From Escherichia coli (GTDB lineage Bacteria; Pseudomonadota; Gammaproteobacteria; Enterobacterales; Enterobacteriaceae), in the NCBI RefSeq assembly GCF_003019035.1, contig NZ_CP027447.1: DNA of 64,000 bases. One strand, written 5' to 3'. The position numbers were made by a program, and so were the translations under genes. How positions within the stretch are numbered: the first letter of the stretch is position 1; each line of letters starts with the position of its first letter. The notes beneath the pieces were generated by a model. The model was not told where the DNA came from and did not search any database. It saw nothing but the letters and a program-made list of their open reading frames with translations. Shown in pieces: positions 42,036 to 47,828 of this stretch.

Positions 42036-43193
42036 TCAGGACGCGGGGATGACCAACGGTTTATTCCCGCTCAGTTCGGTCACCAGGTCATTGATGCCAT
42101 CGCTCATATTTTTAAAGCGCGTCAATGGCGAACGAGTGACCACCACAAATGCGCCAATATTCTTCTGCGGGATCATCGCCATATAGGTAATGAAACCGCC
42201 ACCACCGCCTGTCTTCTGAATAATCCCTGGACGACCCTCTTTCGGGGCCATATATACCCAGCCTAAACCAAGCGCATCCGCTTTGCCGGGGACATCCATG
42301 CCAATCACTTTCGTAAACTGCGCTCGCTGATAAATCAACGTCTGCATGCGATCAGCCTGGTTACTGCGCTGATAAAAATCAGATGACAAATACTGCTGCA
42401 TCCAGCGCATCATATCGCCAGGCGTGGAATAGACGCCGCCGCTGCCAATTGCCGCCAGCGTGTTATTGCATGGACTGGCACCGCGCTCTGCCACCATTAA
42501 ACGGCGGCACTGGTCCGGCGAGGGGGTGTAGGTGGTGTCTTTCATCCCCAATGGACGGGTAATCTGCTCTTCAAACAACTGGGTATAAGGCTTGCCGGAA
42601 GCATTCGCCAGTGCATCTGCCAGCAGGTCGAACGCAAGGTTAGAGTATGCCGCCTGACTGCCTGGCGCGGCTTTCAGCTTCGCCGTAGAAAGGTATTTCC
42701 AGCGTTGCTCGCGCGTTGGCCAGACAAACACTGGACGATGTGCCGCACCTCCCGGCTGTTCACGGGGCAGGGCACTGGTATGGGTTGCTAGATTCACCAG
42801 GGTAATAGGCGTGCCATTGTAAGTCGGCACACGTGCGCCTGGTGGAGCATATTTACTTAGCGGATCGTTTAACTTCACGGTCCCCTGGTCGAGCAATTTC
42901 ACCAGCATCTCACTGGTCATTAGCTTGGTGAGGGAAGCAATACGCACTACCGAATCCAGCTGCGGGCGAACGTTATTACCAGGTCGCGTTTCGCCATAAC
43001 TGCGAAAGACGCGCTGGTTACCGTCGATAACAACCAGCGCCATCCCCGTGGCACCGCTGCCGTAAAAAATATGATCGGCATAACGATCGACAATATCAGA
43101 GGCAAACTCCGGTTCAGTGATCGGCTGCGCCGCATGGACGGAGGTCAATGACGCCGCACACAGCACGGCAGAAAAAAGCAGACTACGTTTCAA
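42036..43193 (-). CDS. ampH: penicillin-binding protein AmpH (class C beta-lactamase fold)
   Basis: 385-aa ORF with signal peptide and active-site SLTK. Confidence 0.93.
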   Translation of the reverse strand: MKRSLLFSAVLCAASLTSVHAAQPITEPEFASDIVDRYADHIFYGSGATGMALVVIDGNQRVFRSYGETRPGNNVRPQLDSVVRIASLTKLMTSEMLVKLLDQGTVKLNDPLSKYAPPGARVPTYNGTPITLVNLATHTSALPREQPGGAAHRPVFVWPTREQRWKYLSTAKLKAAPGSQAAYSNLAFDLLADALANASGKPYTQLFEEQITRPLGMKDTTYTPSPDQCRRLMVAERGASPCNNTLAAIGSGGVYSTPGDMMRWMQQYLSSDFYQRSNQADRMQTLIYQRAQFTKVIGMDVPGKADALGLGWVYMAPKEGRPGIIQKTGGGGGFITYMAMIPQKNIGAFVVVTRSPLTRFKNMSDGINDLVTELSGNKPLVIPAS

Positions 43194-43544
43194 CGGTGGT
43201 GTCCATAAATTGAATGAAGGTAACTGAGCGTATTTATACTACTCATTGATGGATTGCAAAGGGCGAATTAGTGCAATAATAGTGTTAAAAACGTAACGGC
43301 GCGTAAACACGATCTTTTTCCTGCTCACCAATGCCTGCATTTGTGATCCTGCGCGTGTTAATCCGCTTATGTAAACAATCTTTGGTTTGTGAAATCCGTC
43401 GAAACAATTCTTATGGTCAGGCTGGCGAACTAAGCGCCTTGCTATGGGTCACAATGGGCGGTTTCATTTGGCTGACGCTTTGTAGCGGTCATGCGGTTAA
43501 TACACAGCAGTTGTTAAAACGATAAGAAGTTAGCAGGAGTGCAT

Positions 43545-44765
43545 ATGTTTAAGTCTTTTTTCCCAAAGCCGGGAACGTTTTTTCTCTCGGCCTTTGTTTG
43601 GGCATTGATTGCCGTTATCTTCTGGCAAGCCGGTGGGGGTGACTGGGTGGCGCGTATCACCGGCGCTTCCGGGCAGATCCCGATTAGCGCCGCGCGTTTC
43701 TGGTCGTTGGATTTCCTGATTTTTTACGCTTACTACATTGTTTGCGTAGGACTTTTTGCATTGTTCTGGTTTATCTACAGCCCGCATCGTTGGCAATACT
43801 GGTCAATACTCGGTACTGCACTGATCATCTTCGTCACCTGGTTTTTGGTGGAAGTCGGGGTCGCCGTCAACGCCTGGTATGCGCCGTTCTATGATCTGAT
43901 TCAAACCGCGCTAAGTTCGCCGCATAAAGTCACCATCGAACAATTTTACCGCGAAGTGGGCGTCTTTCTGGGGATTGCGCTGATCGCGGTAGTGATCAGT
44001 GTGCTGAACAACTTCTTTGTCAGTCACTACGTGTTCCGCTGGCGTACAGCGATGAACGAATATTACATGGCGAACTGGCAACAACTGCGTCATATCGAAG
44101 GTGCCGCCCAACGTGTGCAGGAAGACACCATGCGTTTTGCTTCAACGCTGGAGAATATGGGCGTCAGCTTTATCAACGCTATCATGACGTTGATCGCCTT
44201 CCTGCCGGTGCTGGTAACGCTCTCCGCACATGTGCCGGAGCTGCCGATTGTCGGGCACATTCCGTATGGTCTGGTGATTGCCGCTATCGTCTGGTCGCTG
44301 ATGGGGACCGGATTACTGGCAGTGGTAGGGATCAAACTGCCGGGGCTGGAGTTTAAAAACCAGCGTGTAGAGGCTGCCTACCGTAAAGAGCTGGTTTATG
44401 GTGAAGACGATGCCACGCGCGCGACGCCGCCTACGGTACGCGAGCTTTTTAGCGCCGTACGGAAAAACTATTTCCGCCTCTATTTTCACTATATGTATTT
44501 CAATATCGCCCGCATTCTCTATTTGCAGGTCGATAACGTTTTCGGTTTGTTCTTGCTGTTTCCGTCAATTGTTGCCGGTACGATTACGCTCGGCCTGATG
44601 ACGCAGATTACCAACGTTTTTGGTCAGGTTCGCGGAGCTTTCCAGTACCTGATTAACTCATGGACCACACTGGTTGAGTTGATGTCTATCTACAAACGTC
44701 TGCGCAGCTTTGAACATGAGCTGGATGGTGACAAAATTCAGGAAGTAACCCATACCTTGAGCTAA
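43545..44765 (+). CDS. sbmA: peptide antibiotic / microcin transporter SbmA
   Basis: 406 aa from [19 protein letters not shown]...; polytopic. Confidence 0.95.
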
Positions 44766-44777
44766 AAAGGAGAAGTA

Positions 44778-45872
44778 ATGTCGCGCGTCAATCATCTATC
44801 TTCGCTGTCATTGTTGGCGGTTCTGGTTTTAGCGGGGTGTAGTAGTCAGGCTCCGCAACCGTTGAAAAAGGGCGAAAAAGCGATAGATGTGGCGAGCGTC
44901 GTGCGGCAGAAGATGCCTGCGAGCGTGAAAGACCGCGATGCCTGGGCGAAAGATCTCGCCACCACGTTTGAAAGTCAGGGGCTGGCACCGACGCTGGAAA
45001 ACGTCTGCTCGGTGCTGGCGGTGGCGCAGCAGGAGTCAAATTATCAGGCAGATCCGGCCGTTCCGGGCTTAAGCAAGATCGCCTGGCAAGAGATTGACCG
45101 TCGTGCTGAACGGATGCACATTCCTGCTTTTCTGGTGCATACCGCGCTAAAAATCAAATCGCCAAACGGCAAAAGCTATAGCGAACGGTTAGATTCGGTG
45201 CGTACTGAAAAGCAATTGAGCGCGATTTTTGACGATCTGATCAGCATGGTGCCAATGGGGCAGACGTTGTTTGGTTCGCTTAATCCGGTGCGCACCGGTG
45301 GGCCGATGCAGGTCAGCATTGCCTTTGCCGAACAGCATACCAAAGGGTATCCGTGGAAAATGGACGGTACAGTCCGTCAGGAAGTCTTCAGTCGTCGCGG
45401 CGGGTTGTGGTTTGGTACTTACCATTTACTGAATTATCCCGCCAGCTATAGCGCGCCGATATACCGTTTTGCTGATTTTAACGCTGGCTGGTACGCCAGC
45501 CGTAATGCCGCGTTTCAGAACGCGGTCAGTAAGGTCAGCGGCGTGAAGCTGGCACTGGACGGTGATTTAATTCGTTACGACAGTAAAGAGCCCGGGAAAA
45601 CCGAACTGGCAACGCGCAAACTGGCGGGAAAACTGGGGATGAGCGACAGTGAAATTCGCCGCCAGTTAGAGAAAGGGGACAGCTTCTCTTTTGAGGAGAC
45701 GGCGCTGTACAAGAAAGTTTATCAACTTGCCGAAGCGAAAACGGGTAAATCACTACCCCGCGAAATGTTGCCTGGCATTCAACTGGAAAGCCCGAAAATC
45801 ACCCGCAACCTGACTACGGCCTGGTTTGCGAAGCGCGTAGACGAACGGCGGGCGCGTTGTATGAAACAGTGA
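44778..45872 (+). CDS. yaiW: lipoprotein YaiW (DUF1615)
   Basis: Lipobox LAGC; 13 bp downstream of sbmA, likely co-transcribed. Confidence 0.9.
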   Translation: MSRVNHLSSLSLLAVLVLAGCSSQAPQPLKKGEKAIDVASVVRQKMPASVKDRDAWAKDLATTFESQGLAPTLENVCSVLAVAQQESNYQADPAVPGLSKIAWQEIDRRAERMHIPAFLVHTALKIKSPNGKSYSERLDSVRTEKQLSAIFDDLISMVPMGQTLFGSLNPVRTGGPMQVSIAFAEQHTKGYPWKMDGTVRQEVFSRRGGLWFGTYHLLNYPASYSAPIYRFADFNAGWYASRNAAFQNAVSKVSGVKLALDGDLIRYDSKEPGKTELATRKLAGKLGMSDSEIRRQLEKGDSFSFEETALYKKVYQLAEAKTGKSLPREMLPGIQLESPKITRNLTTAWFAKRVDERRARCMKQ

Positions 45873-45929
45873 TCAAACAGGAATGTCATGCCAGATAAAG
45901 CGTTTTAGGTCCTATCTGGCAAGTAAATC

Positions 45930-46238
45930 TTACTGGCGGCGATGTCGCCAGTGCAGCCATAGCGCCACTACTGCAAAAATGAGGCAGCCAACTAAAAACG
46001 GGATCAGCCCGAAAATGGTGCCGACACCTAAACCAATTTCCACCCGTGGGCGACCTGTTTCCTGGACCTGCATTAAGCGCTCATAGACGCCGGGCGCATG
46101 CACTAGCAGGTTCAGCAATTGCGCCCCAGCCCAAAAGCAAAACAGCACAAACAACGCATAGGCAATATTGCCAGGCGTTGAAGAGGCATTGCGATATTTT
46201 CCGCTAAACAGCGATTTTGACAGGGTGAAATCAGCCAT
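45930..46238 (-). CDS. yaiY: inner-membrane protein YaiY (DUF2755)
   Basis: 102-aa ORF with hydrophobic segments. Confidence 0.8.
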
Positions 46239-46497
46239 AAAAACCTCCGGAAGTCATCTGCTTCTCTTCTGGTGTGATACCAGCGGCTTATGGCAAGTCT
46301 GACAGGTCATTTAGATTGTCAATATCAGAATCATGGTAAATTGATGTTGGGAATATTCCCGAAGCGTGAATCTTCGTTGTGAGTCACAAAATGGCAACCT
46401 TAAGTTAAATTTATTAACAAATGCGAAAGTGTTGTCTACCCCACAGACAGTTGTTACAGAATATGCAAAGATGTTGTTTTTCGTTAACGGAGCTGCC

Positions 46498-46710
46498 ATG
46501 AACTTGCCTGTAAAAATCCGCCGTGACTGGCACTACTATGCGTTCGCCATTGGCCTTATATTCATTCTTAATGGCGTGGTGGGGTTACTGGGATTTGAAG
46601 CAAAAGGTTGGCAGACCTATGCCGTCGGTCTGGTGACGTGGGTGATTAGTTTCTGGCTGGCGGGGTTGATTATTCGTCGTCGCGATGAAGAAACTGAAAA
46701 CGCCCAATAA
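46498..46710 (+). CDS. yaiZ: small membrane protein YaiZ (DUF2754)
   Basis: 70 aa from MNLPVKIRRDWHYYAFAIG...; start set at internal ATG. Confidence 0.8.
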   Translation: MNLPVKIRRDWHYYAFAIGLIFILNGVVGLLGFEAKGWQTYAVGLVTWVISFWLAGLIIRRRDEETENAQ

Positions 46711-46733: not shown

Positions 46734-47828
46734 TTACATTGTGGTTTTCAGTGCGTTATCTGCAGCGTGACGCTCCAGCGCCAGCTCAATCAAACGCGTG
46801 ATCAGGTCGGTGTAACCCAGACCGCTGGCTTGCCACAACTTCGGATACATACTGATGTTGGTGAAGCCAGGCAGGGTGTTGATCTCGTTGATCACCACTT
46901 CGTTCTCTGGGGTTAAAAACACGTCTACACGCGCCATGCCTGCGCATCCCAACGTTTGATAGGCCTGAACGGCAATCGCCCGGATCTTATCGTTGATTTC
47001 TGGCGCAATGGCTGCCGGAACAACCACTTTCGCGCCATCTTCGTCAATGTACTTGGTGTCGTAGGCATAAAAATCGCTGGTTAGTACGATCTCGCCACAG
47101 GTGCTGGCTTGCGGATTGTCGTTGCCCAGAACTGCGCATTCGATCTCACGACCTTTGATCCCTTGCTCAACGATCACTTTATGGTCGAACTCGAACGCCA
47201 GATCGACGGCAATTGCGTACTGTTCTTCACTGGTTACTTTGCTGACACCAACAGAAGAGCCCTGATTAGCCGGTTTTACAAACAGCGGTAACCCCAGTTT
47301 AGACTCCACTTCGGCAAAACTGATGTTGTGACGATTAGCGCGCGTCAGGGTAATAAATGGCGCAATGTTCAGCCCGGCATCGCGCAGCAGACGTTTGGTG
47401 ACATCTTTATCCATACAGGCCGCTGAAGCCAGAACATCAGAACCTACAAACGGTAAATTGGCGACCCGCAGCATTCCCTGCAAGGAACCATCTTCGCCCA
47501 GCGTACCGTGGACAATCGGGAAAATGACATCCACCGTCGGCAACGGCTGACCGTTTTGCGCGTCGATAAGCTGATGTTCATGTTTACCAGGCACCTGCGC
47601 AAGGCTGGTCGCCGAAGGGCGCAACGCAATATGGGCAGGATCGTCTGCATTTAGCAGATAATTGCTGGCATCGCTGACGTGCCATTGCCCTTGTTTATCA
47701 ATGCCCAGCAGCACAACGTCGAAGCGACTTTTATCAATGGCATCGACAATGTTTTTTGCCGATTGCAGAGACACTTCATGTTCCGCTGATTTACCACCAA
47801 AAACGATTCCTACCCGCAGTTTTTCCAT
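46734..47828 (-). CDS. ddlA: D-alanine--D-alanine ligase A
   Basis: 364-aa ATP-grasp ORF beginning [26 protein letters not shown]. Confidence 0.96.

Follow-up and report, generated by a model that had tools for sequence, protein, structure and literature searches.

The sigma-E-linked sbmA-yaiW operon of Escherichia coli pairs a peptide importer with a lipoprotein predicted to resemble lytic transglycosylases

In Escherichia coli K-12 the genes sbmA and yaiW (b0377-b0378) belong to the sigma-E regulon and have ampH, yaiY, yaiZ and ddlA as neighbours. Both are listed as regulon members confirmed by three earlier studies, with induction of 2.2- and 1.8-fold respectively (PMC2731931), and in vitro assays of sigma-E promoters have included that of sbmA (PMC3326320). 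Co-transcription of the two genes is attributed to Arnold 2014, as cited in PMC6284057 and bioRxiv 2024.10.29.620885. The same work is cited for an effect of YaiW on uptake of the peptide Bac7, with lowered Bac7 sensitivity upon loss of yaiW (Arnold 2014, as cited in PMC6284057, PMC12147183 and bioRxiv 2024.10.29.620885). Here we describe the same locus, with the same neighbours, at positions 43545-45872 of a 64,000-nucleotide stretch of E. coli contig NZ_CP027447.1 (hereafter the window); the strain is not K-12, and nothing of substance distinguishes its operon from that of K-12. The operon, its sigma-E control and the connection between YaiW and SbmA are already known, both in the literature and in genome annotation. 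The new point is a prediction, from a structural model and sequence motifs, that YaiW is folded like an enzyme that cuts the cell wall and carries the active-site motifs of one. In the literature searched we found no paper linking YaiW or its family, DUF1615, to a lytic-transglycosylase or lysozyme fold; InterPro, CATH and the Pfam clans may already record such a link.

Our best explanation of the locus, to which as a whole we assign a probability of roughly 0.6, is a sigma-E-driven sbmA-yaiW operon whose second product is an outer-membrane lipoprotein of enzyme type, similar to the soluble lytic transglycosylases (SLT), that remodels the cell envelope. An envelope-stress promoter some 90-120 nt upstream of sbmA would give rise to one transcript, from which sbmA and yaiW would each be translated from their own ribosome-binding site across a 12-nt, terminator-free gap. 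SbmA is a proton-driven importer exploited by microcins, bleomycin, proline-rich peptides (Bac7) and conjugates of peptides with peptide nucleic acid (PNA); that it brings peptides across the inner membrane is established by solved structures and by the literature. YaiW would be sorted to the outer membrane and would carry a divergent SLT/GH23 lysozyme-like body, with an intact Glu-Ser motif and a 73-residue insertion, and then a probable peptidoglycan-binding module. For YaiW we infer an enzymatic activity, a periplasmic orientation and a mode of helping SbmA: like the Mlt lipoproteins, the protein would work from the outer membrane, binding and probably cleaving peptidoglycan or a related glycan, and would affect SbmA-dependent peptide uptake through envelope remodelling and not as a peptide channel. 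From our own analysis come the identity of the genes, the anatomy of the operon, the conservation of promoter elements, the restriction of the linkage to one lineage, and YaiW's predicted fold with its motifs; for dependence on sigma-E, for co-transcription and for the phenotype with Bac7 we draw on the literature. The core of the locus is as follows.

43545..44765, + strand: sbmA, 406 aa, inner-membrane peptide-antibiotic transporter (open reading frame list, Pfam, NCBIfam and PDB match).
44766..44777, + strand: intercistronic spacer of 12 nt, with ribosome-binding site AAGGAG at 44767..44772 and no terminator.
44778..45872, + strand: yaiW, 364 aa, lipoprotein of family DUF1615 (open reading frame list, genome search and Pfam).

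Both are real, conserved genes and not chance open reading frames. When positions 43000..46300 were compared by megablast with all complete E. coli genomes, the segment was found in 5418 of 5426, and many chromosomes on which it is annotated as ampH, sbmA, yaiW and yaiY are 100% identical over its whole length; the pair named in an earlier, sequence-only reading of the window is intact in both its members. The closest matches of this strain are clinical and animal isolates. As a side observation, 28 of the 5450 matching places are in records classed as plasmids. The sbmA product matches Pfam PF05992 SbmA_BacA (E 9.8e-168) and the NCBIfam equivalog NF008306 (776.9 bits; cut-off 492), and is near-identical to the solved chains 7P34, 9G3D and 9RQJ. 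The description of SbmA as an uptake route for antimicrobial peptides holds, since this is a solved peptide-antibiotic transporter (PDB 7P34, 9G3D). Pfam also reports ABC_membrane_2 at residues 93-283 of SbmA and no ATPase domain: the protein is a member of the SbmA/BacA family, with an ABC-exporter-type transmembrane domain and no fused nucleotide-binding domain. Its canonical start, MFKSFF..., is the ATG at 43545; the automatic open reading frame call opens at an upstream GTG, 43539. The yaiW product matches Pfam PF07759 DUF1615 over residues 50-363 (E 4.3e-155).

At the molecular level it is still fair to call the role of YaiW poorly defined. The features on which our reading of the protein is built are listed below.

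44778..44840, + strand: signal peptide with lipobox L-A-G-C (residues 18-21); Cys21 codon at 44838..44840; +2 residue Ser.
44940..45497, + strand: predicted lysozyme-like or SLT-like (GH23) domain, YaiW residues ~55-240.
45030..45038, + strand: motif I of YaiW, Q85-E86-S87.
45063..45281, + strand: helical insertion of ~73 residues (96-168) that separates SLT motif I from motif II (alignment and AlphaFold2 model).
45300..45314, + strand: motif II of YaiW, G175-P-M-Q-V179.
45477..45488, + strand: motif III of YaiW, F234-N-A-G237.
45498..45743, + strand: helical module, YaiW residues ~241-322, resembling a PG_binding_1-type domain, with invariant D261-G262-D263.
45744..45869, + strand: C-terminal strand/helix segment, containing conserved Cys361.

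The lipobox LAGC with Cys21, together with the DUF1615 match, confirms that the product is a lipoprotein, as had been proposed. Sorting of bacterial lipoproteins follows the established +2 rule, and Ser at this position of YaiW predicts delivery to the outer membrane. Family-1 lytic transglycosylases share three signature motifs, Glu-Ser (I), G-L-M-Q (II) and A-Y-N-x-G (III), and the segments QES, GGPMQV and DFNAGWY of YaiW resemble them. The AlphaFold2 model of YaiW has a predicted local distance difference test score (pLDDT) of 94.1 and a predicted template modelling score (pTM) of 0.89. A full-library HMMER search returned 1003 relatives, and in a 55-sequence alignment spanning 30-84% identity the invariant or near-invariant positions are Q85, E86, S87, T173, G175, M177, Q178, V179, F231, A232 and D233, and likewise N235, G237, Y239, S241, R242 and N243. 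Among 86 divergent, near-full-length cluster representatives, the SLT-type motif residues are kept in 78-85 overall (E86 in 80, S87 in 83, G175 in 85, M177 in 84 and G237 in 83).

A comparison of the YaiW family profile with the SLT domains of five E. coli enzymes by hhalign points the same way. With the full profile, E86 of YaiW falls opposite the Glu of the MltE Glu-Ser motif, the catalytic residue E64 of that enzyme (E 3e-4). With residues 96-168 removed, the three SLT motifs align colinearly at a probability of 77-92% and E of 6e-7 to 2e-5 across six splice choices, removal of the insertion lifting the probability from 40% to 92%; column-shuffled and reversed controls gave E of at least 0.026. 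On the model and the alignments, YaiW apparently has an SLT/GH23-like fold with an active site that appears intact; we do not assign it to the curated SLT family. In this conserved, lytic-transglycosylase-like active site the putative catalytic residue is E86. Within the insertion, T143-E144 (45204..45209) is also near-invariant, with E144 kept in 84 of the 86 representatives, so that the pair is conserved to the same degree as E86; E144 may likewise belong to the active site.

Beyond this domain, the C-terminal helical module resembles known peptidoglycan-binding domains, such as those found in SleC and SleB, in endolysins of phages and in L,D-transpeptidases. Cys77 (45006..45008) and Cys361 (45858..45860) are both conserved, and a possible extracytoplasmic disulfide between them would tie the C-terminal helix to the catalytic helix. 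Mature YaiW is basic, with a pI of 9.5 and a net charge of +13, a composition that would suit binding to an anionic polymer such as peptidoglycan and would be awkward for a receptor of polycationic peptides.

Several results weigh against YaiW as a cell-wall enzyme that assists SbmA. Foldseek against the PDB with YaiW returned nothing significant, the top hit being MltC at E 1.2, and searches of PDB sequences with hidden Markov models, built from YaiW alone or from the 55-sequence profile, returned nothing meaningful. The Pfam SLT model PF01464, with E allowed to reach 10, gives no match to the E. coli protein and matches only two of the 55 relatives, weakly (best E 0.0071). PG_binding_1 (PF01471) likewise matches neither E. 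coli YaiW nor its relatives at E up to 10, in a scan of 50 sub-sequences and among the 25 families listed of the 40 with at least one match. YaiW has furthermore been described as a lipoprotein exposed at the cell surface (Arnold 2014, as cited in PMC6284057 and bioRxiv 2024.10.29.620885), a description that recurs in its RefSeq product name, and a surface-exposed YaiW would be kept away from peptidoglycan. Finally, the pores of peptidoglycan should not hinder peptides of the size of Bac7, which leaves the mechanistic link to SbmA weak.

The reported topology is the starting point of the first alternative, in which YaiW is a surface receptor that captures cationic peptides outside the cell, aids their crossing of the outer membrane and hands them to SbmA, with the lysozyme-like fold as a mere scaffold. 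Surface exposure combined with reduced Bac7 uptake in the mutant, both known here through citations of Arnold 2014 (in PMC6284057, PMC12147183 and bioRxiv 2024.10.29.620885), would fit such a receptor, as would the retention of Pseudomonas YaiW on a lacritin N-104 affinity column and the partial resistance of a yaiW mutant (PMC12147183). The yaiW variants co-selected with sbmA variants under KFF-PNA (bioRxiv 2024.10.29.620885) also speak for it; an independent evolution experiment found yaiW variants alongside sbmA variants under streptomycin selection, and both selections also count in favour of the operon reading. We nevertheless consider a receptor unlikely. The modelled protein, a soluble helical lipoprotein domain without a beta-barrel, would be unable to form a channel alone, and the charge of mature YaiW disfavours electrostatic capture of polycations. 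The retention of SLT-type motif residues is the pattern expected of an active site, a peptidoglycan-binding-like module is present, and YaiW homologues are equally conserved where no sbmA is linked.

The coupling of this putative enzyme to SbmA begins with operon anatomy. The layout is bicistronic: the genes lie on the same strand, separated by a short gap with its own Shine-Dalgarno sequence and no terminator or promoter, in a conserved adjacency. The gap had been given as 13 bp; it measures 12 nt (44766..44777), and sbmA and yaiW therefore share a reading frame. AAGGAG stands five bases ahead of the yaiW ATG, and in a nucleotide alignment of four genera the gap ranges from 12 to 18 nt, with A(A/G)GGA conserved and the Shine-Dalgarno core GGA invariant. 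By pattern scan, neither the gap nor any part of sbmA contains a sigma-70-type site, and the gap is also free of terminator-like sites; four weak matches of the latter kind, inside sbmA (43560, 44460 and 44525) and just within yaiW (44802), are taken as chance. The co-transcription claimed in the sequence-only reading is supported by this anatomy and by Arnold 2014 as cited in PMC6284057. The opposite outcome, a yaiW gene that is transcribed separately and whose loss has no effect, is contradicted by the cited literature on co-transcription and on the Bac7 effect, as far as the citing papers relay it.

Some further observations concern the operon and its junction. The terminator-pattern scan of 42900..46400 gave 12 sites against 4.1 ± 1.9 in shuffles. 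Every one is a weak stem within a coding region, and one of them, 44802..44821, falls in the codons for the signal peptide of YaiW; we treat the excess as chance or an effect of codon composition. RNA folding gives the junction no greater stability than shuffled sequences (z = +0.69), and an attenuator or internal terminator was rejected because leader and junction folds are no more stable than shuffles. As the two genes share a frame, a single stop-codon change would fuse them (junction 44763..44780). One single-member database protein of 627 aa (P0005) has both the SbmA_BacA and DUF1615 domains, and probably represents such a fusing mutation or an assembly artefact.

Upstream of sbmA, the elements relevant to its expression are the following.

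43194..43544: divergent intergenic region between ampH and sbmA, 351 bp.
43401..43411, + strand: invariant block GAAACAATTCT, 11 nt, at ~-59..-49 relative to the inferred start and ~15 nt upstream of the -35 element.
43426..43432, + strand: candidate sigma-E -35 element cGAACTa (consensus GGAACTT), from pattern match and conservation.
43447..43453, + strand: candidate sigma-E -10 element GGTCACA (consensus GGTCAAA), with a 16-nt spacer from the -35.
43459..43544, + strand: putative 5' untranslated region of ~85 nt, ending in conserved AAGAAGTTAGCAGGAG, with a ribosome-binding site at 43535..43539.

A consensus scan of 42900..46400 found no sigma-70-type site in 43194..43544, the single such site in the scanned segment sitting within ampH (43048..43075). 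The earlier statement that no sigma-70 box is visible in a 350-bp upstream region thus stands for the box, the true length being 351 bp. The sigma-E consensus is GGAACTT, ~16 nt and TCAAA, with GG before the -10 (PMC1312014), and a relaxed pattern search found cGAACTa, 16 nt and TCACA at 43426..43453, with GG ahead of the -10 as in the extended consensus. This sigma-E-type site is intergenic, 92-119 nt ahead of the ATG of sbmA. When the DNA preceding sbmA is aligned for E. coli, Salmonella, Klebsiella oxytoca and Enterobacter kobei, CGAACTAAGC in the -35 block and GGTC in the -10 are invariant across the four genera, and the 11 bases between them are different in each. Corbalan and colleagues reportedly also found, in tolC mutants, a link between the activity of sigma-E and the expression of sbmA. 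Scores for the motif itself tell on the other side: by consensus score the whole window has three tied sites, the candidate included, against 3.9 in shuffles, and a loose sigma-E pattern gave two matches where 3.3 were expected, so that the sequence match by itself is not above chance; a stricter pattern with GAACTT gave no match. The site is convincing from the combination of evidence, because it is intergenic, because its elements are conserved around a diverged spacer, and because the literature places the genes in the regulon. The alternative-sigma control that had been suggested earlier is in this way supported by a conserved sigma-E-type promoter, the regulon listing (PMC2731931) and the in vitro assay (PMC3326320).

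From the rule of a 5-6 nt discriminator we infer that transcription starts at ~43459. The resulting leader is not more stable than shuffles in RNA folding (z = +1.05), and an Rfam search of 42900..46500 at permissive E gave no riboswitch or small RNA, the one match being a chance microRNA hit on the hairpin after yaiW. The last ~20 nt of the leader, AAGAAGTTAGCAGGAG (43524..43539), are conserved well beyond what a Shine-Dalgarno sequence needs. This block, which has neither an Rfam match nor unusual structure, might serve in the control of translation, for instance as the target of a small RNA.

The block GAAACAATTCT is invariant in the same four-genus alignment. A/T-rich UP positions have been described for sigma-E promoters, and its location agrees with them (PMC1312014). 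It could be a candidate UP element, the site of an unknown regulator or leftover coding sequence; it also corresponds to a relic of the codons 'ETIL' from a lost upstream gene. In E. coli and Salmonella the ampH-sbmA intergenic region holds, at 43365..43433, the decayed 3'-end remnant of an isochorismatase-family gene, recognised by a nucleotide match of 79-81% over 47-48 nt (E ~1e-6) and a weak protein match (E 0.12-0.18). K. oxytoca (L002 2132..2644) and E. kobei (L003 2148..2681) have an intact copy of this gene between ampH and sbmA, and there the sigma-E -35 GAACTA overlaps its stop (…GCG AAC TAA). A 64-aa open reading frame at 43331..43525 was rejected as a gene, the region being this remnant in another frame.

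How far the pairing extends was surveyed with one genome per species. The survey yielded at least 594 DUF1615 loci, of which the best 80 were kept and searched by tblastn with SbmA for a nearby sbmA. Among these 80, sbmA stands directly upstream of yaiW in ~39 Enterobacteriaceae loci, and 3.5-5 kb upstream in Buttiauxella, Shimwellia, Cedecea, Enterobacter sp. Ag1 and Dryocola. In the latter five, three or four oppositely oriented genes lie between sbmA and yaiW (L032 2587..5841, L041 1851..5732, L038, L043 and L044), leaving the operon broken with both genes kept. No sbmA was found by tblastn within 6 kb of yaiW in 39 of 39 loci from Serratia, Rahnella, Hafnia, Pantoea, Erwinia, Lonsdalea, Rouxiella and Pseudomonas, whose YaiW proteins are 61-70% identical to that of E. 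coli. The pairing is thus specific to Enterobacteriaceae in this survey. A conserved partner of yaiW outside this family was sought and rejected, the neighbours being unrelated (TonB-dependent receptor, GNAT, GST, moaE, MCP and enoyl-CoA hydratase). Since yaiW occurs without linked sbmA and among heterogeneous neighbours, YaiW must do something that does not depend on the pairing, and the operon is an arrangement particular to one lineage.

Upstream of stand-alone yaiW, at a distance of 60-95 nt, 16 of 25 Pseudomonas loci have a motif of the type used by extracytoplasmic function (ECF) sigma factors, GAAC-N17/18-GTCnnTA, with diverged spacers (at 5893 in L055, L056, L062 and L078, 5890 in L067 and 5272 in L072; ~88 nt ahead of the match in L071, L073, L075, L076 and L080). 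This suggests that yaiW is under envelope-stress sigma control in its own right, irrespective of sbmA. The converse separation is also on record, published strain tables showing sbmA without yaiW in A. baumannii (PMC6284057).

The second alternative takes these patterns at face value: yaiW would have been recruited behind sbmA in an ancestor of the Enterobacteriaceae, as both respond to envelope stress, the coupling being regulatory only, with YaiW doing a cell-wall job of its own and affecting peptide and aminoglycoside susceptibility indirectly, through an altered envelope. The confined linkage, the heterogeneous neighbours of unlinked yaiW, the divergently oriented genes in five genera, the Pseudomonas motif and the A. 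baumannii tables all agree with it. Selections with SbmA-dependent compounds, however, repeatedly strike yaiW as well as sbmA, and the junction is tight in four genera and direct in about 39 loci, and we judge a purely regulatory coupling to be quite unlikely, a shade more so than the receptor. That YaiW is a catalytically dead pseudo-enzyme, binding a glycan (peptidoglycan, or sugars of lipopolysaccharide or enterobacterial common antigen) as an anchor or sensor, is highly improbable, given that Glu-Ser, G-x-M-Q and N-A-G are retained in 91-99% of the divergent representatives, an unusual degree of retention where dead enzymes typically lose the catalytic acid.

The reading of YaiW as an SLT-like enzyme can be widened to its whole family. 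On this tentative proposal, which we would rate at somewhat short of even odds, DUF1615/YaiW proteins would be an unrecognised and widespread group of divergent SLT-type lyases or hydrolases of peptidoglycan or a related glycan, with a built-in peptidoglycan-binding module, under ECF-sigma control in enterics and Pseudomonas, and their effects on uptake would come about through cell-wall remodelling and not through a surface receptor. If this is true, YaiW would be a further lytic-transglycosylase-like lipoprotein of E. coli, and the effects on Bac7, PNA conjugates, the lacritin peptide and streptomycin would stem from changes to the cell wall made at the outer membrane's inner face. More boldly still, the physiological cargo of SbmA might be a cell-wall-derived peptide, the locus being flanked by ampH and ddlA. 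Proline-rich antimicrobial peptides, and the antisense PNA conjugates now in development, enter the cell mainly through SbmA, and yaiW is repeatedly struck in resistance selections; what could matter here is the structural reading of YaiW. It would add a candidate to the cell-wall-cleaving enzymes of E. coli, and it prompts a second look at the 'surface-exposed' topology.

The surroundings of the operon include the following features.

42036..43193, - strand: ampH, peptidoglycan DD-carboxypeptidase/endopeptidase.
45889..45921, no strand assigned: perfect 9-bp inverted repeat TGCCAGATA / TATCTGGCA with a loop of 15 nt, between the stop codons of the converging genes yaiW and yaiY.
46734..47828, - strand: ddlA, D-Ala-D-Ala ligase.

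Together, ampH, the lytic-transglycosylase-like yaiW and ddlA give the segment 42036..47828 a cell-wall theme, and the gene order of the neighbourhood is kept in Salmonella, Klebsiella and Enterobacter. The inverted repeat folds with z = -2.56 and has no T-run on either strand; it is a possible end of the operon transcript and does not look like a canonical intrinsic terminator.

Set against known systems, each half of the operon has its own closest relatives. SbmA belongs to the same transporter family (PF05992) as BacA of Sinorhizobium and Brucella and Rv1819c of Mycobacterium. A distant PDB match of SbmA, 6TQE ('ABC transporter ATP-binding protein/permease'), is presumably Mycobacterium Rv1819c. 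To our knowledge, these BacA and Rv1819c homologues are not paired with a DUF1615 lipoprotein. In comparison with Slt70, MltC, MltD, MltE and MltF, YaiW is longer in two places, by the 73-residue insertion that parts motif I from motif II and by an extension of ~125 residues at the C terminus, and unlike the family-1 lytic transglycosylases it is not recognised by Pfam SLT. The Mlt proteins face the periplasm, whereas YaiW is reported to be surface-exposed, and its likeness to them lies in a predicted fold and in motifs. The GH23 chitinase of Ralstonia sp. A-471 (PDB 3W6B) and the goose-type lysozymes share only 11% sequence identity with YaiW; these are hydrolases with another substrate and another acid/base arrangement, whereas the motifs of YaiW follow the SLT pattern.

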